This document shows, piece after piece, positions 1 to 34,303 of a stretch of DNA of 64,000 nucleotides. The notes below the pieces were generated by a model. That model was not told the origin of the DNA. It saw nothing but the letters and a program-made list of their open reading frames with translations, and searched no databases. Source of the DNA: Laetmonice hystrix (taxonomy: Eukaryota); contig OZ249436.1 in assembly GCA_965235115.1 (NCBI GenBank), positions 15,936,001-16,000,000 on the forward strand, written 5' to 3'. A program made the translations under genes and the position numbers. How positions within the stretch are numbered: the first letter of the stretch is position 1; every line of letters begins with the position of its first letter.

Positions 1-96
1 ATTCTCCGCGATTGGACGCAATAACGATACATAAAGAGTAAGCTGAACCTTCAAGATTCATTTTTTCCACATTTCTCCCAGAAACTATTGACTCAC

Positions 97-3000
97 CTCT
101 GCAGCAAGAGATGCCACATAGAGAGCGGTGAGAGTGGTCTGTTGAGCAGGTTTCATCACCACAGTATTGCCTAGAGCTAAGGCAGGGCTAAACTTCCAGG
201 ATTGCATCAGCAGGGGGAAGTTCCACTGTAGTTTAAAACATGTCTCACATTATTAACTCTGATCGTACACCACTTGGTCTTCTCTGGAAATACTTGCATT
301 TTCACCAAGTTACCTGAGACGATAATCTTTGGGTTAGAATATTGAAAAACCAACGAACGAACCCCAAAATCTCCCTTTGCCTATGTCACAGTAAGGTTCC
401 TGTAATTGCTGGGAAAAGGTCATATCGGAATAAAAATAGAAATGGGGGTTGGACCACAGTGGTTGGATCGTCATAATAAAAGTGAGTATGGACTTACCGG
501 AATAATCTGGCCACAAACACCCACTGGTTCATGGCGGGTGTATGTGAAGTAATCGCCAGCTGTAAGTAATAGTCTGAGCACATTAGCCTTGACGCTCATT
601 GAGCACAAGTACTTCATTAAAATTTCTGTAAAATGTACTGCTCCTGTCCTTTGTGTTACTACTTTAGAATACATTAAAGACACAAAGAAACTATTAAACT
701 GAGTTTTATCAGAAGGGGACCTTTGTGATAGAGTGTAGAAATTAGAAGATCTTCCAGAAGCATAGAATATGCCAGTCTATATCTACCATTATCTGGACTT
801 ATCCGGGGTTCAATATTATGTTACCCTAACTCTTGCATGGGCGTATGGGGACTGTTAAGGGAGGCAGGGGCCTGATTTGGCCGAAATTTCTGTCTTTTTT
901 TTGGGGGGGGGGGTTGCTTTGCCCGAATTTCCCTCACTGTTTTGCCTGAAGTTGGGAGGGCAGTTGTCCCTCCTGCCCCCACCCCCGCATCGTATACGCC
1001 TATGCTCTTTTGGGTTAGCAAGTGGCAAACGACTTGGTGCTTAATTCCAACGGTATAAATGTATCAAAATTGATCGAGACGTTACTGACAAAAATGAATA
1101 TTTTTCTCACCAATTGGAATGGTCTTTCCATGGTGTTTATCAGCCCATCCTGCATAGTACCTGCAGATAAGAATGTATATCCATATGATGAGATGGAGGC
1201 AGTCGCGGATCCAGTATAGGGTGCGCAAAAATTAGAAATTGAGCCACAAAGGGAATAAATCCTGTCATTATTGCCGGTCCGAATGTAACGACGAGCGTTC
1301 ATCCCTAGCTATATGATGTATAAATATGATGATCATGCACTCGCCCGTATGTAAGAAAAATGGAGTAGGAATCCGGTATAGGTCTATACAGCCTGCAGAG
1401 TTTACGTTCCGAAACAGCATAAAACAGTTGAATGGCGTTGTTGACAAGATGTCTATGATTAGTGGTGAGGTGAGGTTCCTGAGATGCCATTGGTGTCTGC
1501 CCATTTTGGTGTTTTTCATAACTGGCGATTGTTTGAACTCCAGGTTGCAGATAATGGGTAAGGCGGATTCCTATACTGAGCGGTCAATTCCGTCATTATA
1601 TTATATATTCAATTTTGGCAACTTAGTTATGACTGTCATGACACGCTCAACAAAATAAATGCTCTCTTACCTGTAGCAATCAATTGCAAGGGGAATATCC
1701 ACTGTCAGGGCAAGGTGGTACGGTTTTCCATTGTCCAAAGTCTCCAGAGACTGGGTAAAATGTAGAGTATAAGTAATTATAATAGCAAGCCACATGCCTC
1801 ATTATACAGCTGAAAATCTCAGAGATGATAAGATCAGAAGTTTACTAGAATATATATCCAGTGGCGGATCGGGGGGGGGGGGGGCAGGTTACGGGGGTTG
1901 CACCCCCTCCCCCGTTTCGAAGTACGGTAATTTTTCTTTTTTTTCCTGCTTGAAAGGTTCGAACCAACCAACCCCCCATAGCATGATAATAAAGACGCAC
2001 GGCTAAGTAATGCATGTCGCGCTCCATGAGGTCGGCCAGTTTATAAAGCAGTCGGCCACGTTGTGCGGCGTCCATACGTCTCCACTCGGACCCATACTGG
2101 AAGGCATCTCGGGCAGCCCTCACCGCAATGTCAATGTCCGCCTTGAGAGAAACATAAAACAAACTCAAAAACCAGGTTGATTGGTGCGGAACTAAACTTT
2201 AAATATTTGCAAGAACTCTCTTGGGTACCCTGCGCATCTCCAGTTCTTCCTAACTTGAAATCATGCCTCAGTTTGTAATGTATAGATCACGTATTTCGAA
2301 TTAACAGCAACAAAAACCAAAATGCCATTCCGTTTCCAGACTAACCCCCCCCCCCCCCCCCCCAACATAAATTCCTGGCCACGGGCCTGTATAATTATAA
2401 AACGAGCTGCAGTGAGCAAACTCTACCTTCTAGGCTGAACCCAACAAAACTATCAGTTGCTTTTCTGATGGCACCATCAGACCCAGGTGCCCAGGGCAAC
2501 GCTGCTATATGATTAAGATATTATGACGTCATAACTAAAATCATCAACATTTCTAACAACTGCATCAGAAGATGACAAGTATCCCGATATATGTACCTCA
2601 GTGATACCTAAACTTTTACTCCGCTTGATCTCTTTCACATGGCTTTTCAGGTGGAAATGAAATTAATTAGGCCTACTGCATGTCATCATGGTTACTAGTT
2701 TATTTTTTAGGTTGGTTGATTAAAGGTAATCGATCACCCTACGGCCGCCGAGTTTTGTCCCCATCTCCTGCGAATCCGCGTATTTCAAGCTTACCTGATC
2801 TTAAATCTATCCCACTGGACTAATAAAACATTCTGTCGTAATCATAACATTGTTGTGCTAGGTCTGTTGTTGATAATGAGCCATAATGAGGCGATACATC
2901 CCATATTTTTCATCTCAATGGACTGAGAACTGAGAACGACCGCCATGACCACGTTAGCATTGTTAGGCGGTCGTTACTAAGCAACGGGATTGGGCACATG

Positions 3001-6000
3001 CGTTGCCTCGCACTGCTCCGCCCGCCCTTACCCTATAATCCAAATAAGGGCATGATTTGATTCGCGTGCTCTTGTCTCTAGCCAAATAGGTAAACGCTTA
3101 ATTAATTAATTAAAAATATTGTCGATATGGACGCGCCATAGTACCAGACTGCTAGAAACCCCTTAAAATAATTGTTTTTACTCAAGTTTTGTTGAATTGA
3201 CTGCGTTTATTTCAATTTTCGGACAGATTTCCTTTAATATTCGTCATGCTCTCCTTCATGCCCCAAAAATATAACATATCCATCCAAAACAACACAATAT
3301 ACACAAGTAACCTTTGCTTTATGAAGAAGGCAACAATATATTCCTCATGGTTGGATATACGATGGTCGTTTCTTATCATGGTTTGATATTTTCCTGCGAC
3401 AAGTGTGCATGCAACATGTGCGGATCCAGGAATTATTTTTAGGGGGGCTAACCATCGGACAAAAACATATTAGGCCTAGGCTAATAGGAATTAGGGGCAG
3501 ATTTAGGATTTTGGAAGGGGGACGTGCGGGTCTGCATGAGTGGTAGACTATAGCAGCGTTATCAATGCAAGTGCGCTGTGCGGAATCTCTTTTTTTACCT
3601 TTTTTGTAACGAAAAGGGGGACCTGCGCCCCACCCCCCTGGTTCCGCCCCCTGGGAGTAAGTAGAACCCTCTGTCCCCTGTCTCAGGTACCAGTGCTTGA
3701 TATAAAAAGTGGGACATTACGGCTGTCACGACATGGCCTACTGAACAACAATAACACATATGCAGGCACGCTGCCCTTTGTGAGTGGCCTCATGCCCTAG
3801 TCATGTTACCAGGTGTAGAGGTCCTCATATGACAGATCTGGGTGAATGACACCTTTCATGAATTCATCATAATGAGATGCAGGTGAGTGAGTGAGTGAGC
3901 GACTTGTGGCTTTACGCCATGTCGCCCAGTTTGTAACTCCGTCGAAGAAGAAGGCCCTTTCCCATAATGTATATTTCGGTTCTGATTATTCATATCCGTT
4001 GCTAATAGGAAACAAATAACGGAAACATGCCAAATTAAAATTAAAACAAAAGAATATTTGTACCTTGTCTCCTTCAGCCACGTCACAGATCTTCTCTCCT
4101 GTTGATGGATTCGCAGTCTCAAATGTCTTCCCACTGACTGAGGGCACAAATTCGTTGTTGATGAAAAGCTGGAAGAGAGGGGGGATTAATACAGAGACGG
4201 TAGGCCACTACAGACTCTATACCTCCTGACCCGTGTAAATATTCAAGAGAGATTGGAGAATCCAATCTGAAACAAAATTAATGTAGGGCCTATACCTACC
4301 TGAGCATAGAGTATAGGACAGGCCCTTAGGCCCTTAAAGGTGCTATTCGTGAACAAAAATTCAATTTTTTTATTTTTAATTTTGTTGACGTTTATGTGAT
4401 CCCACTTATCATGGAAATAGATTCACAACAAAGGAAATCAAAATTTTTCATGGATAACGGCACAAATGGGGCTCTCTCAGAAGGCCTGTGGAGACCCTGA
4501 CACGCCCCACCATAGGAAATGCCTCTATCTCGGTGCGCACCGAGATAGGTTTCAAATGCTGCACACAAACTAATAGAAGGTTTATCAGGCCAATGGTATC
4601 GGTAGGAATTTTTTCTAGTACTATGTACACAATGTATGATAGGAGAAATGCCATTCTGTGCGAGACGAATAGCACCTTTAAAGGGAATCAATGACATCAG
4701 ATTTTCCAGAGTTAACCTGTCCTGTCTGGCAGAAATATCTCATATTACAACATCTATCTCATTCCGTGTCGATTTGCTTATAACAATAGCGAAACTGGAC
4801 GAGCAAACGTGCCATTCGTCGCTTTACGTCACGTTTTGCTGTAGTTAGTCCAAGTCCAAGCCCTGTTGCTCTACACGTGCTTATAGAAGAGAAGGCACTA
4901 CAAAGGGTGAATATAGGCCTATTAGAAAAACAGAACACATCGTCACGCGGCTTTTCAAATAATAGAGCTTCACGTCAATGAGGGGATCTTCAATGTTTCA
5001 TCAATATTTCTGTATTTTCATTTAGGCCTGGGTCCACATGAGCAGGGACCCCGGGAATCATTCAACAATTCCTGAATATGATCCGAGATCTTCCCAAATC
5101 GAAGATTCAAAGTATCATCAACGCAGTAGCCTGCTTGAAGGGTTCTAACCAAACATACACAACTACCCCCTTGGCACCAACCCACCCACCCACCCCTCGG
5201 CCCAAACCTAGATCCGCCACGAGTATTTGATCGAGCTGTCTAGCTATGTGTCAGATCTGGATTCAAATTAACCCATATTTGGTGACCCGAAAAGCCAAAT
5301 GCACAGAATATAGGTTAGGACCCTTGAAGTCCGTACCTTTATTACAGGTAATACGAATTACTGAATTACATAGATCTATACCTAGATGTTTCCTGCATTT
5401 GAATGACGTATAATTCCGCATTCTGCATTCCTCTCGAAATAAACGGAAGAGGCTGACCACAATAATTTAAAGAATAAGAATAGGCCTACATTCACTCCAT
5501 ACAAATCACAAGTTCATCGGAAGAAGTTCGTTTGTGTGCTCTTCCACATTGACTGTTCGCGGGGAACATGCAAGGCCGGTCAGGTGTAGGAAAAAGGAAA
5601 GAGATTGACACAAATACGGAGGGATATCGTTAAAAGGATCGAGTGTCGTCCATTTTTATGCTTTGAGGATACCGCGTTCAATTGACCAAAAGTTAGCATA
5701 CGGTGACAGGTATATGGAATGAATTGATACATGCAGGTTGTCGTTACCCGGAAGTCAGCAAAAAGTAGTATAGATGAAGCCCTCTGCGCATTCCCCCTGC
5801 TTTCAAGCGCCTCCATTCAAGTGATCCCTCTGGCAACTGTTCTTTCCAAGGGGGGCTAAGGTTTTTCGTCACAAACTTTTTTGGCCCCCAGGCCAAAGCT
5901 ATCTTTTTTTCCGCTTTGCACCATTAGGCTAATCAAACTATTTTATTCTCATTTCGACTATACTATATATTTTTGACATATGGAACAAACTATTTTTTAT

Positions 6001-7188
6001 GTAGTTTGATGACCAGACTGTTTTTTCCCGTGTTTGGTGAACAATGTTGTTTTAAACATAGCCCCTCTATACGCGTGCAGTTTTTCTAATCGCCGACCTG
6101 GGGCCGTATAGCGAGCGGGGGAAAGGGCGAAGCAGGCGGTTGCCCTGGTTATTCTGAAAAAGGTACACCTTATACCGTTTTACAACGACTCTCGGAACCT
6201 CAAACTGTCACGAACAACTTTTGATGTATGTGCCCTGTAACTATTAGTTTCTACCATAGACCTAGGTCTATGTTTCTACGTACCCCTGTTTCTACCATAG
6301 ACCTAGGTCTATGTTTCTACGTACCCCTGTTTCTACCATAGACCTAGGTCTATGTTTCTACGTACCCTGGTTTCTACCATAGACCTAGGTCTATGTTTCT
6401 ACGTACCCCTGTTTCTACCATAGACCTAGGTCTATGTTTCTACGTACCCCTGTTTCTACCATAGACCTAGGTCTATGTTTCTACGTACCCCTGTTTCTAC
6501 CATAGACCTAGGTCTATGTTTCTACGTACCCCTGTTTCTACCATAGACCTAGGTCTATGTTTCTACGTACCCCTGTTTCTACCATAGACCTAGGTCTATG
6601 TTTCTACGTACCCCTGTTTCTACCATAGACCTAGGTCTATGTTTCTACGTACCCCTGTTTCTACCATAGACCTAGGTCTATGTTTCTACGTACCCCTGTT
6701 TCTACCATAGACCTAGGTCTATGTTTCTACGTACCCCTGTTTCTACCATAGACCTAGGTCTATGTTTCTACGTACCCTGGTTTCTACCATAGACCTAGGT
6801 CTATGTTTCTACGTACCCTGGTTTCTACCATAGACCTAGGTCTATGTTTCTACGTACCCCTGTTTCTACCATAGACCTAGGTCTATGTTTCTACGTACCC
6901 CTGTTTCTACCATAGACCCTAGGTCTATGTTTCTACGTATACCCTGTTTCTACCATAGACCTAGGTCTATGTTTCTACGTACCCCTGTTTCTACCATAGA
7001 CCCTAGGTCTATGTTTCTACGTACCCCTGTTTCTACCATAGACCTAGGTCTATGTTTCTACGTACCCCTGTTGACTTGACCTCCGGGTTTCGGTTTGGCT
7101 CTACCTGCGTGGACAGGAAAACTCGGCCTTGACGTAGAATCCGACTGAAGCTCACTCCATATCGAACAAAAACAGGCAGCGACGTCAT
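97..7188 (-). CDS. ALDH2: ALDH2-like mitochondrial aldehyde dehydrogenase, copy A (5' half; continues beyond window start)
   Basis: Exons 7066-7188, 4064-4168, 2001-2141, 1671-1750, 1111-1160, 498-559, 97-225. All are GT-AG and phase-compatible. Translation begins [28 protein letters not shown] (Arg-rich, presequence-like) and includes [41 protein letters not shown]. Confidence 0.92.
2724..3233. mobile_element. Possible TTAA-flanked non-autonomous DNA element
   Basis: ttaa|aggtaatc ... gatttcct|ttaa: short imperfect TIR. Confidence 0.4.
4338..4677. mobile_element. TTAA-flanked MITE (Kolobok-like)
   Basis: ttaa|aggtgctattcgt ... acgaatagcacct|ttaa: perfect 13-bp TIR with TTAA on both sides. 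Confidence 0.8.
6247..7069. repeat. 41-bp minisatellite, ~20 copies
   Basis: Unit gtttctaccatagacctaggtctatgtttctacgtacccct, nearly invariant. It contains the perfect 18-bp palindrome catagacctaggtctatg and abuts exon 1 of ALDH copy A. Confidence 0.97.
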
Positions 7189-7222
7189 CGTTCAGGCTAA
7201 CTGACTTTCGTAATGAGTTCAG

Positions 7223-7348
7223 AGGCCGGTTCACAAGCACAGTCAAGTCAATTTTAATTGACTTGAAGTCAATTTTACCGGAATCGGATTAGCTAAAATG
7301 TATTTCAAGTGAATTAAAATCGACTTGACTTTGGTTGTGAACCGGACC
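7223..7348. mobile_element. 126-bp foldback MITE (PIF/Harbinger-like)
   Basis: aggccggttcacaa ... ttgtgaaccggacc with internal inverted arms; CAG on both sides as a 3-bp TSD. Confidence 0.7.
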
Positions 7349-8951
7349 CAGATCTACAATGCGGGCAGTAGGCCTAGAGTTCTGCGCCTTGCCACTCATC
7401 TGCTCAAGCGCAACAAATGTCACCCTTTTTCAAACCCATCGCATGATGAATATTTATTTTCTCTGACTGTGCGATGAGGCCCTCTATTGATGAGTATATG
7501 AGTCCAAATTTGCAGGTTAAGATAATGAGATAGTTACACGTCAAGACATAATGGCTTACATCAAAAACTTAAACGTTGCATATTATTGTCTAAACTGGAG
7601 AGAATGATAGTGTGATCCGTTACATACAAGCAAGGAAACAACGTCCTTCGACCGGAGAATAAGGTATGGAAAGGTAAAGATGTGACCGTGTAAAGCAAAC
7701 AATTATCTCTTGCTCCAGTGACTCCAAAATGCAGACATGGGCTGTTAGGTTACATAAGGCCTTAAACTACATAATGTATACCCACTGAAATGGAGAAATC
7801 TAATGGAATTCAACATTCTAGTTGCCTGTTGTCGATATGAAGCGAACGTCGTAATCTATGGCTGATTGTTGACCTGCTAGTCCATCTGGCGGAATATAGA
7901 TATAGAATGATCAATCCCCCACGGCCGTATCACTCCCACACCAGAGCGTTACGAAAACGAAAGTCCTTCCACCGGACTATTCGGCAGCCTACTGACTTAC
8001 TGACTCTGCACACAGCGAGTGGACTGTTTCCGGTCTATTGACCTGCATGACTAGAACAGCCAATGAAATTTATCGGGCGATGAACCGATTAATTTCATTG
8101 GTTGTTGAAGTGGCATACATAATGTCGGCCTAATTAATACATATTGATTGACCTTGAAAGGTCCCACATAACCCTGCAGGTTTGATTAATAAACTAGCAG
8201 CGTGATCGCCGCAGTTGCGCGGAGTCTGGGTGCTTATTTTTTAAATCTATTTTTTCAATGAAGGGGGGAGGCGCCCCCACTCCCCTCTATTTAACCAAAG
8301 ACAAAGTCACGACAAATCCATATCTAGTGGCGTTTATTTCCATTGGCAAATTGACACTAAATCCAGAATGTTTTGCATTCTTTGCAAATGGTTTGCAAAA
8401 TGTAGAGGAAAAATGTAAATATACAATCAAAATCGAACATATCTGTCCAGTAATCTTGTGGTACTGCTTTTCTGAACCCCAATTATACACCTATCTATGG
8501 CAAGACTATTTCGGCATAACCTACGGTATTGAAAAATACTTTGTCATCTCTGTGGAAATATCTCCTTGACAAAAAATAAACATTTTGTAGATAAATCATT
8601 TATGGCAAGACAATTAGTTACAACGGATAATTCCTGATACTGTTATTGTCTGATATCCGGTGAAGAACAATATGTTTATATTTATGGCATCGACTGGACT
8701 TCTCTGAACGAGAAAATCACCATACGATTTATATGGGGGTTGGTTCGCCACATTAATGATTGCGCATTAATGCGCCCCAGCCCCACCCGTATATGACGGA
8801 GCTATTTTATGCATAAGCGAAATTTCAGCACAGGTGTAAAAGTCTGATGATCTTCATGGATATCTATTCTGAGTTGCACAATGCACTCTCTGCTAACGAT
8901 ATAGTGCAGATGGCAAGGAAGACATTTTCCCCAGCTTTACCACTGAGGTCC

Positions 8952-11900
8952 CTATGAATTCTTCTGTGGTACCTTAATGGTTACCTGAAATAGAGAATAT
9001 CATAAGTCAATAATCATTTATAACTTTTCTCATTTGAGGAATTAAAAATGTTAATCATAAATTTCCGGCGGGACCTTGGTTTGTGAAGAACACTCCGTTA
9101 TGAAATGTCTGAATTGGTGTCACAACAGACAGAGTCAGAGCAAGGCGGTCAGATGGATTTACAGAGGATTGTAAATTCACTCATGTCAATGGAAGTGTTA
9201 TAGTCACCCACCGTTTTGACCTCAGTGTAAGCCTCCAGCCCGTACTCTCCTAACTCACGCCCGTTACCGGACATCTTGTAACCGCCAAATGGAGCGGCAG
9301 CATCAAAGGTATCGTAACAGTTGATCCTATCAAAGATTTCAAAGTCACTCATTACTATTATTATTACCAATAATATAGTACTCTACAGTACAGTGCATTA
9401 TAACACAGAAAAATGCAATACGATCTGGTAAGGAGTCATTTGCGTATAAGACGAAGTCGAGAGTGGCATCCTGCATTTCCCTCAGCTTGGCGAGACCAAT
9501 GTCAAATTGATAATGGAAATCAAAATTGACAGATTTGGATTGGCAAGGATTGACAATGTCAGATATTCAGAGTATCCCAGGGTATCTATTATGTCAGCAC
9601 TTAAATTCTCCAGATCGCAGTCAGATTTTTTCATTACTGGTGTTTTTTAAGATGTTAGGGACCGCTGTGTCGTGGATATTCCGTGAATACCGGTAACTGC
9701 CATTTGTGAGCTTACCAGACTGTCCCCGCGCGGACGCCATGAGAGATTTGCATGGCACGATCAAGGTTGGTGGTAAAGACAGCTGCTGCCAGACCATACA
9801 CAGTCTTTGCTGCTCTTTCCAACACTTCTTCTGTCGTTTTGAACTTCAGGATCTGCATCACTGGTCCGAAGATCTGAGGGAAAAACAGTCAGCGCAAAAT
9901 AGTTCGAGGCATACAGAACATTGTCTACATACATGTCATTTAGGACTAATATAATTAAGAAGAAATACCCTCTGAAGCCTACGCTGAATCTAGCCACAAC
10001 TACATGTAGAAATTTCCTTGGGCAGAATTGTATTCAAATCCACTTATTAAAGACACGCTGCTGGATATTACCGCTATACTTCAGTAAGCAGCTATATCGT
10101 GATACCAACCTCCTCATTGGCAATAACCATGTTGTCCTGGACGTCGGAGAAAACTGTTGGTTGAATGAAATAACCACGGTCACCTACGGCATTGCCACCC
10201 ACACATAATTTGGCGCCTTCTTTCTTTCCTTGATCAATGAGTCCAAGGACCTTGTCGAACTGCTCCTTACTCACCTGTGTCGGTGTATAGGTAAAGTCTT
10301 TTAGATTTCAGTGAAACTAAGACATCGAAAGACATCATCACATTCCTAGCCTGTACAATGCAAGTTCTTTATGAAAAGGCATACATACTTTTAGTTTGAC
10401 TCATGATAATTTGTAGTTTTGAAGCTTGTAGCTATAGTATATCACAGAAGCTCTTTAAACTTTAACCAAATATAAAAGCCTGCGTTGACGTTTGAGTAGT
10501 TTGCGAAGATTACCTGTGTGCCCTGTTTGACTCATGATAATTTGTAGTTTTGAAGCTTGTAGCTATATTATGATATCACAGAAGCTCTTTAAACTTTAAC
10601 CAAATATAAAAGCCTGCGTTGACGTTTGAGTAGTTTGCAAAGATTACCTGCGGGCCCTGTTCATTACTGGCATCAAACGGATCACCAACTGTACGAGTTT
10701 TTGCCCGTTCCACACTTCGTTCCACAAATTCGTCATAAATCTGTTCCTCGACAAAGATGCGAGTTCCAGCACAACAACATTGGCCCTGGTTGAAGAAGAG
10801 GCCAAAGTGGGCCATCTCGATCGCGTGGTCCACTGAAAGACACACAAACGTTGGAATGCAATAACTTTTAGAAAAGATTCTGCCACTTTATGGCAAGGAG
10901 TTATTGTTTGGATGCTTGATCCAATTCAGGACGCGCGAGGCCTTCAGAACCGTGGGGGTTACCCCCCACCCCCACCCCCACACACAATCCGACAAGAACA
11001 TGGATAACTGCAGACCAATCGTAAATACGCTGTTAATATTCTGTCTATCTTTGGACGGGTATATCCTTCTTTGAAATCATTATAATCCTACTACTATAAA
11101 ATTATTTGTAGAGGAGGAGGGATACAACCCGTAGAGCTATCAATACTTACTGTTGGCATCAGCTAGCACAATGTTGGGACTTTTTCCTCCCAGCTCCAGG
11201 GTCACTTTCTTCAGGTTGGATTTTGCAGCCATACTTGCAATTAATTGGCCAATCTATATATTTTAAAAATGTTATCAGTTTATAATTCCATGAAAATAAC
11301 CAGAAAATCGTTTTTTGTTGAAGGATTCAAAAGAGGAACCTATAGTTACGATAGAGTAGGCGTACTTATAAATAACTAGGTATTATTTTAAGACTAAATG
11401 TAAATTTTCCCACAGTGATTTACTATCACAAGTTGCCCTACCTCGGTTGAACCTGTAAAGGCCACTTTGTCCACATCCGTATGCTCGACCAAAGCTGCTC
11501 CCGCTGTTGGCCCATAGCCTGAGATGATGTTGATCACGCCAGGCGGGAAACCAGCCTAACCACACCAACGCCAGATATTATCTTAAATAAATTCTTTAAT
11601 CACAATATATCGCTCATATTTAGCTAGACTGCAGTCTGAAAACGTCACAGTGTCGAGGTCTCACAACACAAAATTTTAGCACACAGTCATTTCTTTTTGA
11701 TACAATTCACTCACCTCAGCAGCAAGAGATGCCACATAGAGAGCGGTGAGTGGGGTCTGTTCAGCAGTCTTCATCACCACAGTATTGCCCAGAGCTAAGG
11801 CAGGCCCAAACTTCCATGACTGCATCAGCAGGGGGAAGTTCCACTGTAACATATTCCATACCTTTCAGGACCCTGATAAGTGAAGTAGTTTTATTGTCAT

Positions 11901-14900
11901 TGAGAACTGGGAATTTTTCGCTTGGATTACCAATTCCCTTTAATTCAAACATTTGTTTTTGCACATAGATCTTTATGTTTATGTACACTGTCGAGATCCC
12001 CTTGCCGGTGATTCTGGCTTGACTTTGTCTTACTCTTTTTACCCAGTGCTGACCTATAGGCCTATATTTACACATGTAACCCACCGAGACACAAGGAAAC
12101 TGTCGACACACCATCTGACGTGTATCTTTACGGTGTACAAGTCATAGAGGTTCGCATACTGGTTCAGTATGACAAGACGTGTCGTTCCTCTACTTTGGAA
12201 TGTGGTATTTTTTATAGTCATATGTACCCGTAATAGGCCTATATAGGCCTACACACAATCGTTGCAAAGGTTGAATGCCTACGTCATTCCTCTCTCATTT
12301 TCAGGTGAGAGACGCCAGACAAGAAACTGGGACATCGACCTGAGCCCGTCACGGTAAGGTTGCTTGTAGTGGCTGCCTGACTCAGGGGCGCTGCTGCTGG
12401 GGAGAGGGGGGGGGGGGGGGTCCACCCCACCCCACCCCACCCCACCCCACCCCACCCCACCCCACCCCACCCCACCCCACCCCACTTTTGCTCAGTGGCC
12501 TAAAGAGGTCAAAGGCTCCTGAAGTTAGCCTAGACCTTTTGGCCTTTGAAGGACATGCCCAGTGAAATCAAACAAAAATGGCCAGAATTTCGTGAATGCA
12601 TTGTTAAACAGTAGATCTATGTGTGCCTTTTCTATTATTACTTTTTTATTATGCGAATTCTATCTACCAGCCATTCAGGGGCCGTATGGAACGCGTGTTC
12701 CATATAGGGGCTGATTTAATTGTACAAGTTACGGGGTGAGGTCCTATAGAAGCGCCGGAACATGTAGGCCTATAAATTACGCCAGGCTGTTCCAACAGGA
12801 GGCACCATCCCCTCAGTTGGCTACAACTTTGTGCCCATGGGGAGGGAGGGTGTCCACTTAACACCCCCCCCCCCCCCGTCCCGTGGCCCCGTGGACAGAA
12901 TAGAATCTATAGGTTAAAGTTAATAAATGGGTAGGCCTACTTGTTAATTTTTGTTTATACTGTTGGCTATTTTCATCAAATTAGAAATAATCCAAGCAGC
13001 ACATATAGGGGCCTAATAAACACGTAAGGGGATTCGGCTCCTTCACCGCAAGAAAGTATGGAACCCGATGTCTGGCGCATAAATACGGCACTCCATCTTT
13101 GCTCTCGTGCCGTATTCATGCGCCAGGCATCTCGTTCCATACTTTCCGGCAGTGAAGGGCCCTCTGACCCTTTGCTCTAGCCACCAATCCTTAGTTCTCT
13201 GGTGCTGCCATCTGTTGTTCAATTGCCGTGAATTGACGTTCGCGAACTGGCAGGAGGCCAGGTCAGGAGACTGGCAGACTGACGTACAGTGACAAAGTCT
13301 TGAAGAAATGGCCCGCAACAGTGCTGCCAACATTTTAGGAACACGAATGCGGGAGACACCAACCCACCCAGCCCTATCCCTCACTGAGCGCGCCGCAGGC
13401 ACGAGATAGAACTGGCGCAAAGTCCGCGAGCGCCGACGGCATATTAAAGCCCAGCTAGGGGGTCTGGGGGCATTCCGGAATATTTTAATATTTAAGGTGT
13501 ATTTTAGAGCAAAAATAAGGTCTCCCCAGCCACTCTAGCTAATGGTAGGTCTATAGCCGATGATAAGGTAGGCCTAATTCATTTTAAGGCTTATTTGTCT
13601 TTAGGCCTAGATATATAGACCTATAGGCCTATTAGGCCTATAAAAAATGATGTGAATTTTATTTATACATAATGATAGGCAATGAAACGAAAGTAATCGC
13701 ATCTTGATTATTGAAATAGGCCTACCTGTTAAACTTTAACACATAGAAAAGTGTGTAGGCCTACACTGCTATTTTACGGCTTTTTTTTAGATGCAAAAGG
13801 CATAACACATAATCAGGGTTGCCCCCCCCCCTCCCAAACTTTGAAATAGGCAGCGGCGCCCCTACATACACTGTACATGAGGAGTGGGTCTGATGAGAAT
13901 ACAATGTACATTGAATCTGGACTTACCGGAATAATCTGGCCACAAACACCCACTGGTTCATGGCGGGTGTATGTGAAGTAATCCCCAGCTGTAAACAATG
14001 AGTTGTTCATATTATCAAAGGCATAAACTTGTGAATGACTCGACATAATGTCTAACCGGTTATCGATTTTCCAAAATTGTTGGATTGCTTGACAGTCTAA
14101 AACGATTGATCAGTTGTCTTACTCAAATATCGTTCCAATTAAGTGCATGCCTTAACTTACATCTGGCTAAAACGAAATGCTTCTAGAAAGACGGAAATTA
14201 TGTTTGCTGTTTTATATTTCGTCCATTACAAAAAACTACAAGTTAGAAAAATAGGATAAACGCCTCTTTTAGAAAATATCAACATGGGGATTCAATAGAT
14301 TTATATCCTCTACAACTGTAATTAAATGCTTGATAGGTTTTCTCAAATTTCTTTTACTTAAAAGCATTGTGCTCCAATTTGCTAAAGAAGAGATAGGAAA
14401 GAGTAGAAAGATTTTTATGGAAAACAAGCATGCGTTCCTCAGACAAATACACATACATACTTGAACCCAAACCTTCATTCCCACCTGAGTTGGTAATCAT
14501 ACACTGACTTGTTACTGACAAATGTTGTCCTTACCAATTGGAATGGTCTTTCCGTGGTGTTTATCAGCCCAGCCTGCATAGTACCTTTAAACAGGAGTGT
14601 ATCCATGGATACAGAGTGCAGCTCCAAGGCAACTTATACTAACCTCAAAAATACCAGGAAGTGAATACAAATTTCTTCCACGGTAAGTTGAATTTATGGT
14701 ACCAGTAACTAGGATTGCCGGGTGTTTACCTTGAACAGGAATTTTGATTTCCATTTTGACATAGTTAAATATTTATATCCACTCTCACCTGATGCAAGCA
14801 ATTGAGAGGGGGAGATCTGCTGCCAACGCAATATGGTACGGCTTTCCATTGTCCAAAGTCTCCAAAGACTAGGTAAAGATATGCAGATATTGCACAATGT

Positions 14901-17900
14901 ATTTTTAGATTCTGTACTTGTTTACCTGATGCACCACATAGTGAACTCGCCGCTACATGTACATCGAAAGTGTTGTTGAGAAAGGGACAAAAGCAGGAAA
15001 GATACTATAGAGTGACAACTACAATCGGTTTCCATTTATAGTAAATCAGATATTTTGGTGAAAGTGGCGCATAAAAAGACTGATAACAGTTAGATGAAGC
15101 ATCTAGCATGCAAAAAAACATAACTAATCTGTATGGAGAATAAGTGGCTGCCCTAAATAAGAGACATTGAGGGCTAGTAACTTTTGATCCATCATCCAAG
15201 TATAGCAAATTTTTGACGGGAAGGTTTAAACTATTGAGGAGTTTTAGATTTCAACTGTTCTTTTCCTGAGATCATACTATGAATCACATTATTTCGTTTC
15301 ATAGAGCATGTAAAACGGTGACGTTTCTTGGACTGTCAAATCACAAGACCGTGATTCCTTTCTGTCAAGGAAGAAGGACAATTAAAGCACAGTAGGCATA
15401 AAAGGATATTAGCTCGGAAAATCTGAAAGCTTTAATGAAACAGTACACAATAAGATCTACTTTACTAGAATTGCCATTTTCAGTATAAGCTTCACCCAGA
15501 TTAAAATTAGACTAACGCATTTAACATAGTAACAAATATATATTTATGAGGACGCACGGCTAAGTAATGCATGTCGCGCTCCATGAGGTCGGCCAGTTTA
15601 TAAAGCAGTCGGCCACGTTGTGCGGCGTCCATACGTCTCCACTCGGACCCATACTGAAAGGCATCTCGAGCAGCCCTCACCGCAATGTCAATGTCTGCCT
15701 TGAGAAAAAAAGTAAGATTAATGAACAACGCGGTACTTTTACTTCCCCTAAAGTTTCCAGCACCATCGGAGCCCATCCAAGACTGTCAGGGCTTGGTTGG
15801 GGAGGGGGGAGGGGGAGGGAAGCTGGCTGGACACTGCCACCTTCTGGTGCTTTTAAAGGGAGCTATAGTTGAAACAATGGTTAGGGGTCGATATGGCCTA
15901 CTGAAAGAGGCACGCTAGCCCGTTTCTTTGAATTTTATAAAAAAAAAATGTATCGTTGCACAGTTACATGCAAAGTTTACTTATATAGCCAAGTATGGAA
16001 TCCCCGGTTGCTGTCAGTGGAAACCAACTTGCCTACCGATGTTACCTCTTTTTAATTCAGAGAACATTATAAAAAAGACAAAGGGGCAACGCAATGACAT
16101 ATTTTGTAGACATTCTGCTATACTGAAGATGAGCATCTCAGTGTAGAACGAGGATATATTTTCATTTGACGCTGTGCTGCATTGTCAATACAATTATGAT
16201 GTATAAGGATCTGTTCCTTCTGCTCAACCATTATAAAAATAAAGGCGTTAAAAAAGATGTGACATTGTACCTTGTCTCCTTCAGCTACGTCACAGATCTT
16301 CTCTCCTGTTGATGGATTCACAGTCTCAAATGTCTTCCCACTGACTGAGGGCACAAATTCGTTGTTTATAAAAAGCTAGAGATCGGAGAAAAAAACCACA
16401 TGACCATAAATATTAAATTTGATATTATCAAGTAACAATTCTCATCTGGTAACAAGAGTGTTAGGCTTATAGAGCGACTTGAAAAGGCCAGTGAAAACAA
16501 TTAACCAGACGTTTAGTGTTCAAAAACTGTTAATTTCGTGTTGAACATATCAAAAATCTGTAAATTCCCACATTTTGGTGAACTCCAAAGGGTGAAACTA
16601 CAATTCAAGTGCTGCTATTAATAATAAGTACAGCCGGTAGTTTTTTTTGGGCAGAGGTGAATGTACCTGACACGGATAAAACTAATCACATCACTTGATC
16701 TGTTCATGTGTCAGTGAACTGATCAACCTTTCAGACACAGAATTCACCATGAGTACATTGGGAGTACGCCTATTCCCTCCTCGCTCTCACCATTTTGTAC
16801 TAACAAATCTAGTCAATGGCACGGAAATAAATGGAACATTTTCTAGACACTGACCTGGTGGAGTGACAGTTCTGCACCGTCAATGGGGCAGTTATTAGCC
16901 GATAGATCTATATATGTTTGTAGTAAAACGATTTTAATCTTGTTTATTGTCCCACCGTCTTCATATACAGTCCCACCTTTGAAAAGTCTATTTCAGAGGG
17001 ACGCGGATAGTACATGTACTTCAATATACTCGATATATTATGTCACCGGCTTTATTTTGAGACGCGTGGGGCGACAACCAATAGGCCGAATCTACGCAAT
17101 AGGCCTAGGCCTACTGGTTTAGTTGCCCTGCATGAAGAGATGTTATATAGGCCGCGCCCGTCATGTTGAGCTCGGCTCTACTATGTTTATCGTGATAGAT
17201 GAAGGCCTACAAAGATGGGGGCATGGCGGCTGCATGCGAGGCGCCTATAGATGTATAACCTATGTATCTAGTCTGAAACCCGCGCCGCTGAACTTAACTG
17301 TAGGCCCTATACAAGCAGCAGCAGGCGGTCTCAGGTCATGGAAGAACGGGGTGAGCGAGGTTGTAAACGCCGCCACAACTCGCCAGCTGCATGCATGCCA
17401 CGCTCTGGCCGTGCCATGTCTTGTGTATTTGTTACAACGCGCATCACAAAGTTTGTGCCATCAACCAGACCTCGTCTCGGAATGTATCACACAAGTCATA
17501 TTCAAAAGGAATTGCAACACTGAGACGGCTTGGGTCCCGGCCCGGAGCTTGGGGTAGGCACGGTTTAGGTCCCGGCCCGGAGCTTGGGGTAGGCTATGTT
17601 ATGGTGCCCTTTTTACGCGCTGAGCTAAGCAAATCATCATCTTCAAAGCTCCATGTAGGCCGAGGCTATATGACCAATCAGTCTTGATAGGCCTATCAAA
17701 ACACAAAGTAGTTCACTCCCCTACATGGTCATAGAAACCACCTGCTTGGATGCATTTCGTCACGATTCAACCTACTTCCACAACAGTGTGTTCAGGTGTC
17801 TTAAAATAAAAAACATCTTATATAGGTCTTAGAGTCTGTACGAAGGGAACCAGTTACTTATAGGCCTAGGCCTACCTGCCCTCCTTCAGTCTATACGTTC

Positions 17901-18785
17901 TTTTTTTTATTATTTATTATTAATCATCTTTAAACAGGATATCCCACTCAACTAATAGCGCCGTTACACTGGGGGTCCTGTACACAGAATGTACAGAGCA
18001 TATAGGCCTACATATACACACATAAGTAGGCCTAACAGCTAGGCCTAGGCCTACACATCGCCACTGACACCAGTGAAATCAGTGGCGGATCCAGGATTTC
18101 AGGAAGGGGGGCACCTTTTGGTGGATAGGACCTATAGGTTAGCCTATATCGGTGGCTCATTTTTGGGGTGTCCGGGCAGGGGTATAGGCAGAACTGAGAT
18201 AAGGGGGGGGTGTTCCCAACCGTAATATTATAGTAATTCATTTAGATCTAGGCTTAGATTTAGATTTAGTTATTTAATTAGTTATTAATTATCCGGAAAC
18301 CCGAAAACCCCCCTAGCTACACCCTTGCTGGGGGCCCTCCTATAAAGGTAATTATGGCAGAAGAAATTTCTCCCAAATCTTTCAACGAAATTCCCTTATT
18401 TTTATGCATGAAACATAGAAAACAGGCAAGACTTTGACAATAGAGGGGGCTGGCAGGCCCATAGGGGCCCTACCTAGGTGGCGGGGAGAGGGAGGGGATG
18501 AGCTTCGTCTGCATCAATGTTAGCCCTGCCTATAGTCCCGTTTACCATGTGAATTCACAAAAGAACCGCATTATAGATATTTAGGCCTGGGCATAGGCGC
18601 TGCACATCGATCGAACCGGGCCAAATGAGATTAACGGCCGGAGATAGGCGGTTGATACGTACCCCTGTTGCCTTGACCTCTGGATTTCGGTTTGGCTCGA
18701 CCTGCGTGGACAGGAAAACTCGGCCTTGACGTAGAAACCGACCGAGGTGTGCTCCTTGTCGAGCAAAACGGAACAGTGACGCCAT
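8952..18785 (-). CDS. ALDH2: ALDH2-like mitochondrial aldehyde dehydrogenase, copy B (complete, 14 coding exons, 520 aa)
   Basis: Exons 18663-18785, 16271-16375, 15558-15698, 14789-14868, 14535-14584, 13927-13988, 11715-11843, 11442-11555, 11151-11253, 10648-10832, 10110-10274, 9716-9873, 9212-9326, 8952-8984; total 1563 nt, open frame. Motifs [37 protein letters not shown]-terminus [10 protein letters not shown]. Confidence 0.96.
10395..10650. repeat. ~130-bp tandem duplication in a copy B intron
   Basis: gtttgactcatgataatttg...aagattacctg occurs twice (~10395-10516 and ~10525-10650). Confidence 0.85.
12422..12485. repeat. (CCCCA)n microsatellite next to a poly-G run
   Basis: About 13 CCCCA units; a shorter version is in copy C at ~28359-28385. 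Confidence 0.9.
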
Positions 18786-19559
18786 CGCTGAGGGCCTGTA
18801 GACGCTATATTTGACTTTAGCTGTCGTAGGTGTGGATGGACGGCACTTTAATCCGTCGGAAACACAGGTCTACTGCTGTTCCGCGCCTTCCCTTTCAGAC
18901 ACAGAAACGCAGTATCGTTTGTTGCCCACTGTCTGCAGCTGCTTCATGAATATTTATAGCCCCTGATAGCCTCGGGAATGAGGCCACCTGATTGACTGAA
19001 GCAGGCGAGCTCGGGCGCTGTCCGCTCGTGCGGCAGGGATGTAGCCCATGCAGGCTATGCGCGGACTGGAAGCAAGTCCCGTGCGAGGGCCTGGACCGTA
19101 TGGATTTGGCTTTCATTAGGAAGTAGGAAGTCGAATAGGCCTCTTGGGCCATGGGTTAGGGGCTTCGATCTCGGCCTACGGTAGGGCCTATAGCCTACTT
19201 CTTTTTAGGTTTCAACTGCATGAGAGTGCTGACTGGAGCCAGGCACATGATGGGGGGGGGGGGGGCGGCAAGACCCACTTAAAACGAAAGTAAATTCGCC
19301 AGTTTGTACAGGTCAAGGGTTGACTATTCGGGCACCAAATGTGTTCAAATCTTTTCTAACTTGTTTAGAATTTCACTTGATTGAAGAAAAGTATGGTAAA
19401 CCGTATACGTAATAGTCTATTTAAGCCCATACTGGGCAAGCAGGAAGTTGGCCGATCATCAAGACTGAAGACAAGATTGCGTTAAATAATTTTGCTGTCT
19501 TCTTAACAAAGTGTGCATTATGCAATGTGCGGTGAGACACACATAGGCACACATAAAAA

Positions 19560-20490
19560 TCTACAAATGCTGGACAAGTTACCATGCAAGTTGAAGGACC
19601 GGTAGTGTGGCATGGCGCATAGCTTGATGGATGCGAGGCCAGTTCAATTCAAGGATCTGGTTGAATTTGTGCAAGAAGAAGATGTCCTGTCTTGAAAATG
19701 TGTTATTTGGCAGGTTAAGCAGTCAGAATGAACACCAGTCAGGGTCAGGTTCACAAAGGCAAACAAGTCCAAAGGCAAGAGGGGCAAGGGCTTCACGTCA
19801 GCTGCAGGAATGTAAACGGATTGTCGCCAAGCTATATGAAAAAAATGCGATTTTTAACGTCTTAAGGATTGTTGCTGGAAAAACACAAGTCACCTGGTCA
19901 AAGACTGTCAGAACATGTTGAAATGTAGCATTAATTGTTAACTATCACATCCTGCAATTCTGCACGTGGACAATGAGTAACACGCAGGAAGTGGGAACTT
20001 CCTCGCCGGCAGCAGGGACTAATGAAGCATGAAGCCAATGTGGGATACGACGTTGATAGGCCCAGAGAGCTGACAGGAGTGCCAACCATCATGCCTGTCC
20101 TGTTGAGGAGTAACAGGCATTGCTGTGAAGACTGTGAATCATTTTTAGACATCGACAGGCACAGTTGAGTGTATAAACCTGACGGATAAAAAAACAAGTT
20201 GACAGCAGTGTGATAAAAGGCTTGGAAGTCATGGACATGGAGGGAAGAACCGTGATACACCTTCCGCCCATATAGGCCTACACAGAAAAGAATTCCCGTA
20301 TCAAAAGGCGACATCGTGAGGAATTGTGACAAAGTCGTATTTGAACGGACTGAAGTTACCTAACATCGAAGCAGATATTGGCCTGTCAATACGAAATAAT
20401 GGGCCAAAGGCGTGAGAACCATGGCAAGTAATAATTAAGGGGAAACGGACCATGCTGTACGGCCAGCATTAGGATTTGCCTCTGTGATAG
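19560..20490 (+). mobile_element. Degenerate BEL/Pao LTR-retrotransposon gag/protease-region remnant
   Basis: Frameshifted patches such as VIHLPP..RIPVSKGDIV resemble the Pao polyprotein. Colinear with the clearer remnant at 35.0-37.1 kb. Confidence 0.45.
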
Positions 20491-21102
20491 GCCTCGCAAT
20501 ACTCGGCCTATTGCCAAAGCTACACAAATGAGAGCATTTTAAAACGCGCAGAATGGGATGCTATAGCGCACATAGCCAATCATTTCAAATGAAGTTTTGC
20601 CTTTACCTTCAGCCATTGAGTCCAATGAATTTAGCTCAAGTCCTCCTACAAAGCAGATTCAGGTGATTTTTCAAACGAAACGGGCACTTCTAAATCGTCA
20701 CGGCCGGCGGCCATTTTAAATAAATAAAGGAAACAGCTATTATCTAAGAAGGGGGCCTAGATCTCGGGCCATAATGGAGGAGTGCTTGCGCTCCTTGTGT
20801 GATGATATGCTCCCCTACTGGCCTTCAGTGCGCATGTGCATTAGGACTAACAATATTGCAGGCAACGGAAATCAAACTGCTCGGTTCACATTTTCAAACG
20901 TTTGTTAAATATATGGGATAAAAAACAAAAAAAAGTGAGCAGTGGAGCGGTTTGATGAGAAGGAATACACCAATTCGATCGAACGGCATGATTCACGAAG
21001 AATTGTCCACAGCGGTGAGTTCGTATTGGAGGTATACCGGCGATGTCAGTCCCTATTTGCTGGCAACTGCACTCTAAAAACTAAAGAGTTTCAGGGAGCT
21101 CG

Positions 21103-23519: not shown

Positions 23520-24975
23520 AAGAGTCCAAATTTGCAGGTTAAGATAATGAGATAGTTACACGTCAAGACATAATGGCTTACATCAAAAACTTAAACGTTG
23601 CATATTATTGTCTAAACTGGAGAGAATGATAGTGTGATCCGTTATATACAAGCAAGGAAATAACGTCCTTCGACCGGAGAATAAGGTATGGAAAGGTAAA
23701 GATGTGACCGTGTAAAGCAAACAATTATCTCTTGCTCCAGTGACTCCAAAATGCAGACATGGGCTGTTAGGTTACATAAGGCCTTACACTACATAATGTA
23801 TACCCACTGAAATGGAGAAATCTAATGGAATTCAACATTCTAGTTGCCTGTTGTCGATATGAAGCGAACTTCGTAATCTATGGCTGGTTGTTGGCCTGCT
23901 AGTCCATCTGGCGGAATATAGATATAAAATGATCAATCCCCCACGGCCGTATCACTCCCACACCATAGCGTTACGAAAACGAAAGTCCTTCCACCGGACT
24001 ATTCGGCAGCCTACTGACTTACTGACTCTGCGCACAGCGAGTGGACTGTTTCCGGTCTATTGACCTGCATGACTAGAACAGCCAATGAAATTTATCGGGC
24101 GATGAACCGATTAATTTCATTGGTTGTTGAAGTGGCATACATACTGTTGGCCTAATTAATACATATTGATTGACCTTGAAAGGTCCCACATAACCACTAC
24201 AGGTTTGATTAATAAACTAGCAGCGTGATAGCCGCAGTTGCGCGGAGTCTGGGTGCTTATTTTTTAAATCTATTTTTTCAATGAAGGGGGAGGCGCCCCC
24301 CACTCCCCTCTATTTAACCAAAGACAAAGTCACGACAAATCCATATCTAGTGGCGTTTATTTCCATTGGCAAATTGACCCTAAATCCAGAATGTTTTGCA
24401 TTCTTTGCAAATGGTTTGCAAAATGTAGAGGAAAAATGTAAATATACAATCAAAATCGAACATATCTGTCTCGTAATCTTGTGGTACTGCTTTTCTAAAC
24501 CCCAATTATACACCTAGCTATGGCAAGACTATTTCGGCATAACCTACGGTATTGAAAAATACTTCGTCATTTCTGTGGAAATATCTCCTTGACAAAAAAT
24601 AAACGTTTTGTAGATAAATCATTTATGGCAAGACAATTAGTTACAACGGATAATTCCTGATACTGTTATTGTCTGATATCCGGTGAAGAACAATATGTTT
24701 ATATTTATGGCATCGACTGGACTTCTCTGAACGAGAAAATCACCATAAAAATTATATGGGGGTTAGTTCGCCACATTAATGATTGCGCATTAATGCGCCC
24801 CCAGCCCCACCCGTATATGACGGAGCTATTTTATGCATAAGCGAAATTTCAGCACAGGTGTAAAAGTCTGATGATCTTCATGGATATCTATTCTGAGTTG
24901 CACAATGCACTCTCTGCTAACGATATAGTGCAGATGGCAAGGAAGACATTTTCCCTAGCTTTACCACTGAGGTCC

Positions 24976-27900
24976 CTATGAATTCTTCTGTGGTACCTTA
25001 ATGGTTACCTGAAATAGAGAATATCATAAGTCAATAATCATTTATAACTTTTCTCATTTGAGGAATTAAAAATGTTAATCATAAATTTCCGGCGGGACCT
25101 TGGTTTGTGAAGAACACTCAGAATATACACGTTATGAAATGTCTGAATTGGTGTCAGAGCAGAGCAAGGCGGTCAGATGGATTTACAGAGGATTGTAAAT
25201 TCACTCATGTCAATGGAAGTGTTATAGTCACCCACCGTTTTGACCTCAGTGTAAGCCTCCAGCCCGTACTCTCCTAACTCACGCCCGTTACCGGACATCT
25301 TGTAACCGCCAAATGGAGCGGCAGCATCAAAGGTATGGTAACAGTTGATCCTATCAAAGATTTCAAAGTCACTCAGGAACCATATTATTAACAATAATAT
25401 AGTACTCTACAGTAGAGTGCATTATAACACAGGAAAATGCAATACGATCTGGTAAGGAGTCATTTGCATAAGACGAAGTCGAGAGTGGCATCCTGCATTT
25501 CCCTCAGCTTGGCGAGACCAATGTCAAATTGATAATGGAAATCAAAATTGACAGATTTGGATTAGCAAGGATTGACAATGTCAGATATTCAGAGTATCCC
25601 AGGGTATCTATTATGTCAGCACTTAAATTCTCCAGATCGCAGTCAGATTTTTTCATTACTAGTGTCTTTTAAGATGTTAGGGACCGCTGTGTCGTGGATA
25701 TTCCGTGAATAACTGCCATTTGTGAGCTTACCAGACTGTCCCCGCGCGGACGCCATGAGAGATTTGCATGGCACGATCAAGGTTGGTGGTAAAGACAGCT
25801 GCTGCCAGACCATACACAGTCTTTGCTGCTCTTTCCAACACTTCTTCTGTCGTTTTGAACTTCAGGATCTGCATCACTGGTCCGAAAATCTGAAGGAACA
25901 CCAATCGTCGCAAAATATTTTAAAGGCGTACAGAATATAGTCTAGGTGTATACTTATGATTTAGGACTATCCTATGAAAAAATATACCAGACAATTTCCT
26001 TCAACCTGCAGCTGAATCTAGCACGAAAAACATAAGTTAAATCTGAAGATTTCTCGAACAGCAATTTCTTCTTCACGCAAATTTAGATACATCTAGTTAA
26101 TAAAAAATCACATTCTAGATGCGGTAGTAAACCAGCATAATCAATTATCTTGACACTCGCCTCCTCATTCGCAATAACCATGTTGTCCTGGACGTCGGAG
26201 AAAACTGTTGGTTGGATGAAATAACCACGGTCACCTACGGCATTGCCGCCCACACACAGTTTGGCGCCTTCTTTCTTTCCTTGATCAATGAATCCAAGTA
26301 CCTTGTCGAACTGCTCCTTACTCACCTGAAAACCATCCAAATACGTACCATGACGGGTTTGGCAGATATAGTAACCAATGCTAACATTAACATTGTGCCT
26401 ATAGTTGTTGGCCCTTTAGTCCATAGCTCAATCTAAGAAAAAAAACGTAAATGTCAGGCACGACAAAAGTTACTTCATACAAATGTATTTTCATGGCAGT
26501 AATTATCAATGAATAGACGAATGCCTTTTGCCGCCGCCAAATTAATAATTAGCCTACAGTACAATTTGGCTGCGTTGACATTTGAGTACATTGTAGTTAC
26601 CTGCGGGCCCTGTTCATTCCTGGCATCAAACGGATCACCAACTGTACGAGTTTTGGCCCGTTCCACACTTCGTTCCACAAATTCGTCATAAATCTGTTCC
26701 TCGACAAAGATGCGAGTTCCACCACAACAACATTGGCCCTGGTTGAAGAAGAGGCCAATGTGGGCCATCTCGATCGCGTGGTCCACTGAAAGACACACAA
26801 ACGTTAGAATGCAATAACTTTTAGAAAAGATTCTGCCACTTTATGGCAAGGAGTTATTGTTTGGATGCTTGATCCAATTCAGGACGCGCGAGGCCGTCAG
26901 AACCGTGGGGGTTACGCCCCCCCCCCCCCCACACACACACACAATCCGACAAGAACATGGATAACTGCAGACCAATCGTAAATACGATGTTAATATTCTT
27001 TGGACTGGTATATCCTTCTTTGAAATTTTTATAATCCTACTACTATAAAATTATTTGTAGAGGAGGAGGGATACAACCCGTAGAGCTATCAATACTTACT
27101 GTTGGCATCAGCTAGCACAATGTTGGGACTTTTTCCTCCGAGCTCCAGGGTCACTTTCTTCAGGTTGGATTTTGCAGCCATACTTGCAATTAATTGGCCA
27201 ATCTATATATTTTAAAAATGTTATCAATTTATAATTCCATGAAAATAACCAGAAAATCGTTTTTTGTTGAAGGATTCAAAAGAGGAACCTATAGTTACGA
27301 TAGAGTAGGCGTACTTATAAATAACTAGGTATTACTTCAAGACTAAATGTAAATTTTCTCCCGCAGTGATTTACTATCACAAGTTGCCCTACCTCGGTTG
27401 AACCTGTAAAGGCCACTTTGTCCACATCCGTATGCTCGACCAAAGCTGCTCCCGCTGTTGGCCCATAGCCTGAGATGATGTTGATCACGCCAGGCGGGAA
27501 ACCAGCCTAACCACACCAACGCCAGATATTATCTTAAATAAATTCTTTAATCACAATATATCGCTCATATTTAGCTAGACTGCAGTCTGAAAACGTCACA
27601 GTGTCGAGGTCTCACAACACAAAATTTTAGCACACAGTCATTTCTTTTTGATACAATTCACTCACCTCAGCAGCAAGAGATGCTACATAGAGAGCGGTGA
27701 GTGGGGTCTGTTCAGCAGTCTTCATCACCACAGTATTGCCCAGAGCTAAGGCAGGCCCAAACTTCCATGACTGCATCACCAGGGGGAAGTTCCACTGTAA
27801 CATATTCCATACCTTTCAGGACCCTGATAAGTGAAGTAGTTTTATTGTCATTGAGAACTGGGAATTTTTCGCTTGGATTACCAATTCCCTTTAATTCAAA

Positions 27901-33900: not shown

Positions 33901-34303
33901 GTGAACAGAAGCTCATGCTCACCGTTTTGCTCACTGTTTTCGTTTTTTCGGGTGTTTTTCCGCGAGCTTGCTCACCATGAGCACGCCTCATGGAAAAAAA
34001 GCAACCCAAAAACCACGAAAACGCTGAGAATGAGCTCATGCTCACCCTTGCTCAGCTTAGCTCAGCCTTGCTCACGGTGCAGTAAACAAAAAAAAACGGG
34101 CCCTGCGGGCATAGGCGCTGCACATCGATCGAACCGGGCCTAATGAGATTAACGGCCGGAGATAGGCGGTTGATACGTACCCCTGTTGCCTTGACCTCTG
34201 GATTTCGGTTTGGCTCGACCTGCGTGGACAGGAAAACTCGGCCTTGACGTAGAAACCGACCGAGGTGTGCTCCTTGTCGAGCAAAACGGAACAGTGACGC
34301 CAT
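24976..34303 (-). CDS. ALDH2: ALDH2-like mitochondrial aldehyde dehydrogenase, copy C (complete, 14 coding exons, 520 aa)
   Basis: Exons 34181-34303, 31114-31218, 30400-30540, 29677-29756, 29423-29472, 28788-28849, 27666-27794, 27393-27506, 27100-27202, 26601-26785, 26161-26325 (GC donor), 25732-25889, 25236-25350, 24976-25008. Same exon sizes as copy B, open frame. Confidence 0.94.
32236..32568. mobile_element. 333-bp MITE with 9-bp TSD (Mutator-like), present in copy C only
   Basis: TSD gagcgggtg at 32227-32235 and 32569-32577. ~35-bp TIR gcgaaat..cccacattagttctggacccc. Empty site in copy B at ~17345. Confidence 0.88.
33841..34103. mobile_element. Foldback MITE in intron 1 of copy C only
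   Basis: gggcccggtttttttgtttac ... gtaaacaaaaaaaaacgggccc with long internal inverted arms; absent at the homologous copy B site (~18590). Confidence 0.8.

Follow-up and report, generated by a model that had tools for sequence, protein, structure and literature searches.

The first intron of copy A, one of three ALDH2-like genes in the window (the whole stretch of 64,000 nucleotides of Laetmonice hystrix DNA that was analysed), opens with a 41-bp minisatellite of 20 units carrying 19 GT donors (6247..7072, minus strand). This array is a splice-junction minisatellite, a class already described under the names of F7-type VNTR and mirage, since the exon/intron border falls inside unit 1 and the GT is kept in 19 of the 20 units, the two structural features by which such repeats are recognized. 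It would probably be a neutral by-product of repeat instability, with the first donor predicted, in view of the analogues studied so far, to remain the main one and, possibly, a transposon scar as its seed.

A donor-spanning array of 20 copies of a 41-bp unit on the minus strand had been described in an earlier note on this DNA. TRF finds it at 6247-7072 with a period of 41, 20.1 copies, 97% matches and a score of 1576, and the contexts read unit by unit agree. Unit 1 begins 7 bases inside exon 1 and straddles the border with intron 1. It contains the authentic intron 1 donor, GTACGT (7060..7065, minus strand), the context of which is that of the B and C donors and which is in phase 0 to exon 2. 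Over the 20 units, the donor +1 positions run from 7065 down to 6283 on the minus strand. With a slash for the exon/intron border or its copies, the context is GGG/GTACGT in 16 units and AGG/GTACGT in three (units 7, 8, and 18); in unit 4 the GT is lost. In copies B and C the donor is likewise ACAGGG/GTACGTA and, as the note had stated, the array is missing.

Most units were also said to contain a perfect 18-bp palindrome. This palindrome, CATAGACCTAGGTCTATG, is perfect in 18/20 units, units 2 and 4 having one extra base. In its first copy (7037..7054) the last three minus-strand bases (7037-7039) read ATG, 15 nt upstream of donor 2 and in frame with exon 2; the other palindromes end likewise, so that 18 of the 19 downstream donor positions are preceded by an ATG at this distance. 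A 7-bp direct repeat flanks each palindrome. The last copy (6255..6272), which may be what a P-type element left behind on excision, is preceded (6273..6279) and followed (6248..6254) on the minus strand by the 7-bp direct repeat GTAGAAA, the two occurrences of which are candidate copies of a target-site duplication. The ends of the array are bounded by a 3-nt microhomology, AAC, and sequence variants are common to units 2 and 4, on the one hand, and to units 6, 7, and 17, on the other hand. Finally, the in-frame stop announced in the first unit is present: when the frame of exon 1 is read on into unit 1, a TAG is reached at codon 52 (7033..7035, minus strand), and it is met for any downstream donor.

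The three ALDH2-like genes lie in tandem on the minus strand, with exon 1 at 7066-7188 in A, 18663-18785 in B, and 34181-34303 in C. In copy A, exon 1 (41 codons, 123 nt) has the same length as in B and C, with 21 differences, and would encode a mitochondrial leader, the first 26 residues of which include four R/K and no D/E. Exon 2 (4064..4168, with the acceptor at 4168) and exons 3-7 (2001-2141, 1671-1750, 1111-1160, 498-559, and 97-225, minus strand) have an open frame, and the remainder of the gene is outside the window. Exons 1-7 could be mapped in A, B, and C, with open frames of 690 bases. The top PDB matches of the host gene are mitochondrial aldehyde dehydrogenases, and the homologues of one exon are 77-87% identical across many animal records. 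From these best matches and the Arg-rich, acid-free leader, the gene is predicted to be of the mitochondrial ALDH2 type.

The relationships between the three copies are not uniform. Between A and B, only 1-4 bases differ in exons 2, 3, 5, and 6, as against 11-21 in exons 1, 4, and 7, and the introns are unalignable. Such a patchy identity suggests exon-limited gene conversion. The segments 7500-21000 and 23522-35015 are 88-99% identical over introns and flanks, with 4 differences in 690 coding bases; as judged from the sequence, a recent tandem duplication gave rise to B and C. At residue 65, copy C carries a G>R replacement. Unique DNA upstream of A is limited to about 300 bp, the segment starting at 7500 being duplicated with the flank of C. 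A MITE-like inverted repeat (7216-7355, 62-nt arms, 82%) stops about 27 bp short of the start codon of copy A.

When compared with B, copy A shows a dN/dS ratio of 0.27 (0.056/0.205) overall and of 0.16 in exons 2-7, and its 690 coding bases are free of stops and frameshifts. Its exon 7 (97-225, minus strand) displays the replacements G>S, E>Q, and P>T. Among 66 proteins, the E replaced by Q in copy A is an E in 41/41 homologues having the motif; it corresponds to E195 of human ALDH2, a residue that binds the NAD ribose. These substitutions at conserved sites suggest that copy A may be under relaxed selection, either decaying or changing function, and its cofactor preference may be altered. 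Farther in the window, exon-like frames at about 43300-48450 (plus strand) and at 52900-59700 (minus strand) resemble a gamma-glutamyltransferase gene and an endo-beta-N-acetylglucosaminidase gene, respectively.

At the RNA level, the 19 GT donors have a predicted U1 pairing of -7.7 or -7.4 kcal/mol, equal to that of the authentic donor. The candidate donors had been viewed in the note as separated by hairpins. Palindromes are indeed found between the donors, but adjacent ones are predicted to pair with each other, forming an 18-bp stem of -31.4 kcal/mol (z -5.8 vs 200 shuffles); for a lone unit, the predicted hairpin amounts to -9.1 kcal/mol. Because adjacent palindromes pair, the donors would be in loops or in linkers and would not themselves be paired by the palindromes. 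With a pair span of 80 nt, 10/10 even donors are within the 23-nt loop of a stem and 0/10 odd donors, the latter being in linkers. Overall, donors are predicted to be mostly unpaired. Donor 2, the nearest competitor, is in a 23-nt loop at all four pair spans, odd-numbered decoys are mostly outside stems and, at a span of 300, donor 1 becomes enclosed too. A masking of the decoys by hairpins that would leave donor 1 free is, in this form, unsupported by these predictions, the decoys being as a rule unpaired and donor 1, with an unpaired fraction of 0.25-0.49, being less open than most of them. Thus, structure alone gives no reason for a preference for donor 1.

The view that donor 1 is mainly used comes from the studied analogues and from the intact state of copy A, the latter argument being weak if the array is young. 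According to the available part of the work on human cases (PMC1557585), the 37-bp repeat in intron 7 of F7 offers five to nine identical donors, of which the downstream ones, although functional, are not used, the choice falling on the most upstream one. In the same text, LMNB2 and PDGF use the authentic donor only, the two nearest of 25 pseudo-sites are also used in 6-16 (IFI6), and two extra sites are used in intron 13 of CBS, which has 15-20 units (PMC1557585). As in F7, the most upstream donor of the copy A pre-mRNA would be picked. A limited use of donor 2 or 3, similar to that seen in CBS and 6-16, is plausible; the resulting transcript would contain the codon 52 stop and would probably be degraded, and copies B and C would buffer any loss. 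Should competition be confined to the first donor or the first two or three, a change from 10 to 20 units would be expected to have little effect. Several points count against a predominant donor 1. Additional donors serve in two of the five human cases, the predicted folding gives donor 1 no advantage and copy A carries substitutions at conserved sites. Moreover, in classic experiments with duplicated donors, the donor nearer the acceptor was often favoured.

The note had gone further, proposing that the use of distal donors would yield substrates of nonsense-mediated decay and that repeat number could thereby tune the expression of copy A. In such a model, decoys would be used in proportion to their number. 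The near-identical candidate donors and the premature stop downstream, on which this proposal was built, are there. Tuning by repeat number is unsupported here, is disfavoured by the closest studied cases and appears unlikely. It could make use of 19 GT donors predicted to pair with U1 as well as the authentic one, and of a codon 52 stop common to every decoy. It would find precedents in the extra donors of 6-16 and CBS (PMC1557585) and in human tandem repeats, which, in the accessible text of one report, can alter splicing with their length (PMC10078293). However, none of the five human cases makes use of more than two additional donors (PMC1557585), so that a dose effect across 20 units is unexpected, and the lancelet mirages are reported, in the portions available, to be silent (PMC3087553, PMC3902484). 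In addition, nothing in the analysis, which had contigs of a single sample, points to length variation between individuals or to selection on the array.

In another model, which we regard as quite improbable, the array would have crippled copy A. Downstream donors would win, most transcripts would be unproductive and this decaying duplicate would be made harmless by B and C. The conserved-site substitutions in exon 7, the inverted-repeat element next to the start codon and the two intact-looking paralogues that adjoin copy A would fit with a decay. On the other hand, the 690 coding bases free of stop or frameshift and the dN/dS values argue for a gene kept in function, an argument which is weak because an array of recent origin would have left no trace in these figures so far.

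It is very doubtful that the decoy donors give rise to a leaderless cytosolic ALDH2, started at the ATG of a unit through re-initiation, leaky scanning or an internal start. Such a form would rely on the ATG found five codons upstream, in the frame of exon 2, at 18/19 decoy positions. Moreover, 6/24 full-length homologues start 5-23 residues from the exon 2 motif, which indicates that short N-termini exist in the family. However, chance alone would give the matching frame in one case out of three. The ATG is part of a hairpin stem, has a poor context with a T at position -3 and, for donor 2, overlaps the codon before the stop. If true, a cytosolic isoform derived from the ATG of a scar would represent a new way of re-targeting an enzyme, but this is unlikely. 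As for a combined scheme, in which the scar would both seed the array and supply the ATG, and the minisatellite would switch copy A among mitochondrial, degraded, and cytosolic products, it is hardly to be expected.

For the array itself, an independent check was sought in Logan contig sets from three runs, belonging to one sample and one study, in which 0.25-0.30 of 40 words were present. The sample behind these contigs may be the source of the window itself. The runs are DNA-like, since the contigs cover introns. Contigs were compared over 1-6316, that is, 70 bases into the array. Two of them, X2 record 16 (6000-6313) and X3 record 24 (5884-6313), proceed from the flank to the last unit and then to the next palindrome, and they differ from the window at 4 and 5 letters, respectively. 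Both contigs at the array end thus carry the palindrome and, because contigs with other letters enter the second-last one, at least two palindromes are present outside this assembly. That the array was created by the assembly, or that the animal has a much shorter one, is therefore most improbable, even though its units are 97% alike, three of them differ by single-base insertions and none of the contigs of the three sets, over 1-6316, spans it; besides the contigs reaching the second-last palindrome, the recurrence of variant units at separate places of the array stands against such an artefact.

The same contigs give some indications on the neighbourhood. In the bin containing the array end, the summed contig depth is 4-6 times that of the flank, depth being here no measure of copy number. 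Two segments in the introns of copy A, 2744-3377 and 4221-4853, have a very high summed depth, which points to high-copy interspersed repeats. Among the joints listed for the contigs, those between exon-sized pieces likely come from the own introns of the paralogues. With regard to palindromes, one of 24 bp is found at 4525-4548, in an intron of copy A, and many palindromes based on TAGGCCTA occur window-wide (for example at 12234-12251, 17100-17113, and 32010-32037).

Repeat instability at donors is not restricted to copy A. Copy B contains a donor-spanning duplication of 134 bp x 2 (10394..10661, minus strand), in which the true donor, at 10647, is followed by a decoy at 10513, and this duplication is missing from C. 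Being unrelated to the array, this second case shows that duplications of this type happen repeatedly at the locus. Both the A array and the B duplication, two cases only, begin with AACAGGG in the exon and end with AAACTAA(A/T)AG. This boundary motif was not seen in the other tandem repeats listed by a script, which missed several repeats, that of B included.

The formation of the copy A array likely comprised three steps. In the first step, a 25-bp insertion, made of the 18-bp palindrome and an extra copy of the 7-bp site, would have occurred in intron 1, 4 bases from its start; a P-type transposon that inserted and was then excised may have left it as a scar. In the second step, a duplication bounded by two AAC triplets would have affected a 41-bp segment that includes the last 7 bases of the exon and ends shortly after the scar. 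The array would then have been expanded to about 20 units by slippage or unequal exchange, perhaps aided by hairpins. Since the array starts and ends on AAC, as its boundaries show, the mechanism of the first duplication was likely one of 3-base microhomology. The variants common to units 2/4 and 6/7/17 suggest a later turnover involving several units at a time. The first 12 intron bases of A and B match at 10/12 positions before diverging, so that the left copy of the 7-mer looks ancestral.

Concerning the first step, we would give the excision scar of a P/Galileo-type transposon a little less than an even chance. An excised P-type transposon could leave a short inverted pair enclosed by two copies of a 7-mer. 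P excision scars keep the terminal bases of both element ends, and the ends carry a CANRG motif. The palindrome of the array is a perfect inverted 9 + 9 bp starting with CATAG, which is too short for an assignment to P-type ends. A direct repeat of at least 7 bp flanks 98/63041 control 18-mers (0.16%, in a post hoc test) and 0/58 other palindromes of at least 12 bp. In the P superfamily, Galileo produces 7-bp duplications with the consensus GTAGTAC or GTANTAC, and the P transposase makes a 17-nt staggered cut, leaving a gap that can be shut by end joining, according to the parts available of these studies (PMC2775673, PMC4168063, PMC7776569, PMC10983969). The 7-bp direct repeat of the array, GTAGAAA, is close to this consensus, with a 5/7 match to GTAGTAC. 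As far as the same sources go, the superfamily and the palindrome also have in common inverted ends beginning with CAT, zebrafish Pdre2 having CATAC where CATAG is found here, with a divergence after 4 bases. In contrast with P elements, only 9 bp per end are present here. Within the 64-kb window, no parent element with the ends of the palindrome and no transposase were found, and a scan for CANRG-ended elements of up to 6 kb with 7/8-bp duplications returned array units only. Near matches such as CATAGATCT are devoid of such flanking duplications. In metagenomes, the exact palindrome was found at 3 loci, 0/3 with a flanking direct repeat, a number near chance for an 18-mer according to a rough estimate.

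A Helitron 3′ end located at the end of the array also fits with part of the data. In the available text on these elements, a palindrome of 16-20 nt lies near a terminal CTRR (PMC13404089). Comparably, the last palindrome of the array is followed by CTAA + T, ending 11 nt past it, an arrangement met by chance at 1260/127960 positions (1.0%). However, the 5′ TC end expected for a Helitron is missing between the donor and the palindrome, the CTRR is outside the repeated unit, and the direct repeat would be left unexplained. As another possibility, inverted and direct repeats arranged as in a scar would also result from a templated repair insertion.

Whatever its seed, the array is comparable to the minisatellites of human F7, CBS, 6-16, LMNB2, and PDGF, in that the first unit lies over the exon/intron border and the donor is reiterated in the intron. 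The dimensions are also close, with a unit of 41 bp as compared with 37 bp in F7, and 20 copies as compared with 5-25 in the human cases. Unlike these, the present array is located at a first exon and contains an 18-bp palindrome with flanking direct repeats, an ATG and an in-frame stop. Around the F7 pseudo-sites, the authors saw no specific structure, in the available part of their article (PMC1557585). On the most likely reading, the array is of small importance. It could serve, modestly, as a natural system in which to see whether the upstream donor is chosen first outside mammals, since it combines 19 near-identical donors with a stop of its own. The array may also be a rare case in which the seed of a splice-junction array is readable. 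No publication dealing with a transposon-seeded splice minisatellite was found, in a literature search too thin to claim absence from print.

Among invertebrates, the nearest relatives of the array are the lancelet mirages, which are found in Adh3, in the globins BflGb6 and BflGb9, in troponin C, and in PGBD5, and which reportedly leave splicing undisturbed, as far as the accessible text goes (PMC3087553, PMC3902484). As in these mirages, an invertebrate intron/exon boundary is repeated in tandem, the unit is within the range of 10-160 bp, the units are homogeneous and most of them keep the splice signal. The difference lies in the candidate palindromic, transposon-like seed, none being mentioned for mirages in the portions available of these papers (PMC3087553, PMC3902484). 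In one of them, the origin of mirages is called unclear (PMC3087553); a confirmed transposon scar at the start of the copy A array would therefore give a concrete route by which such repeats can arise.
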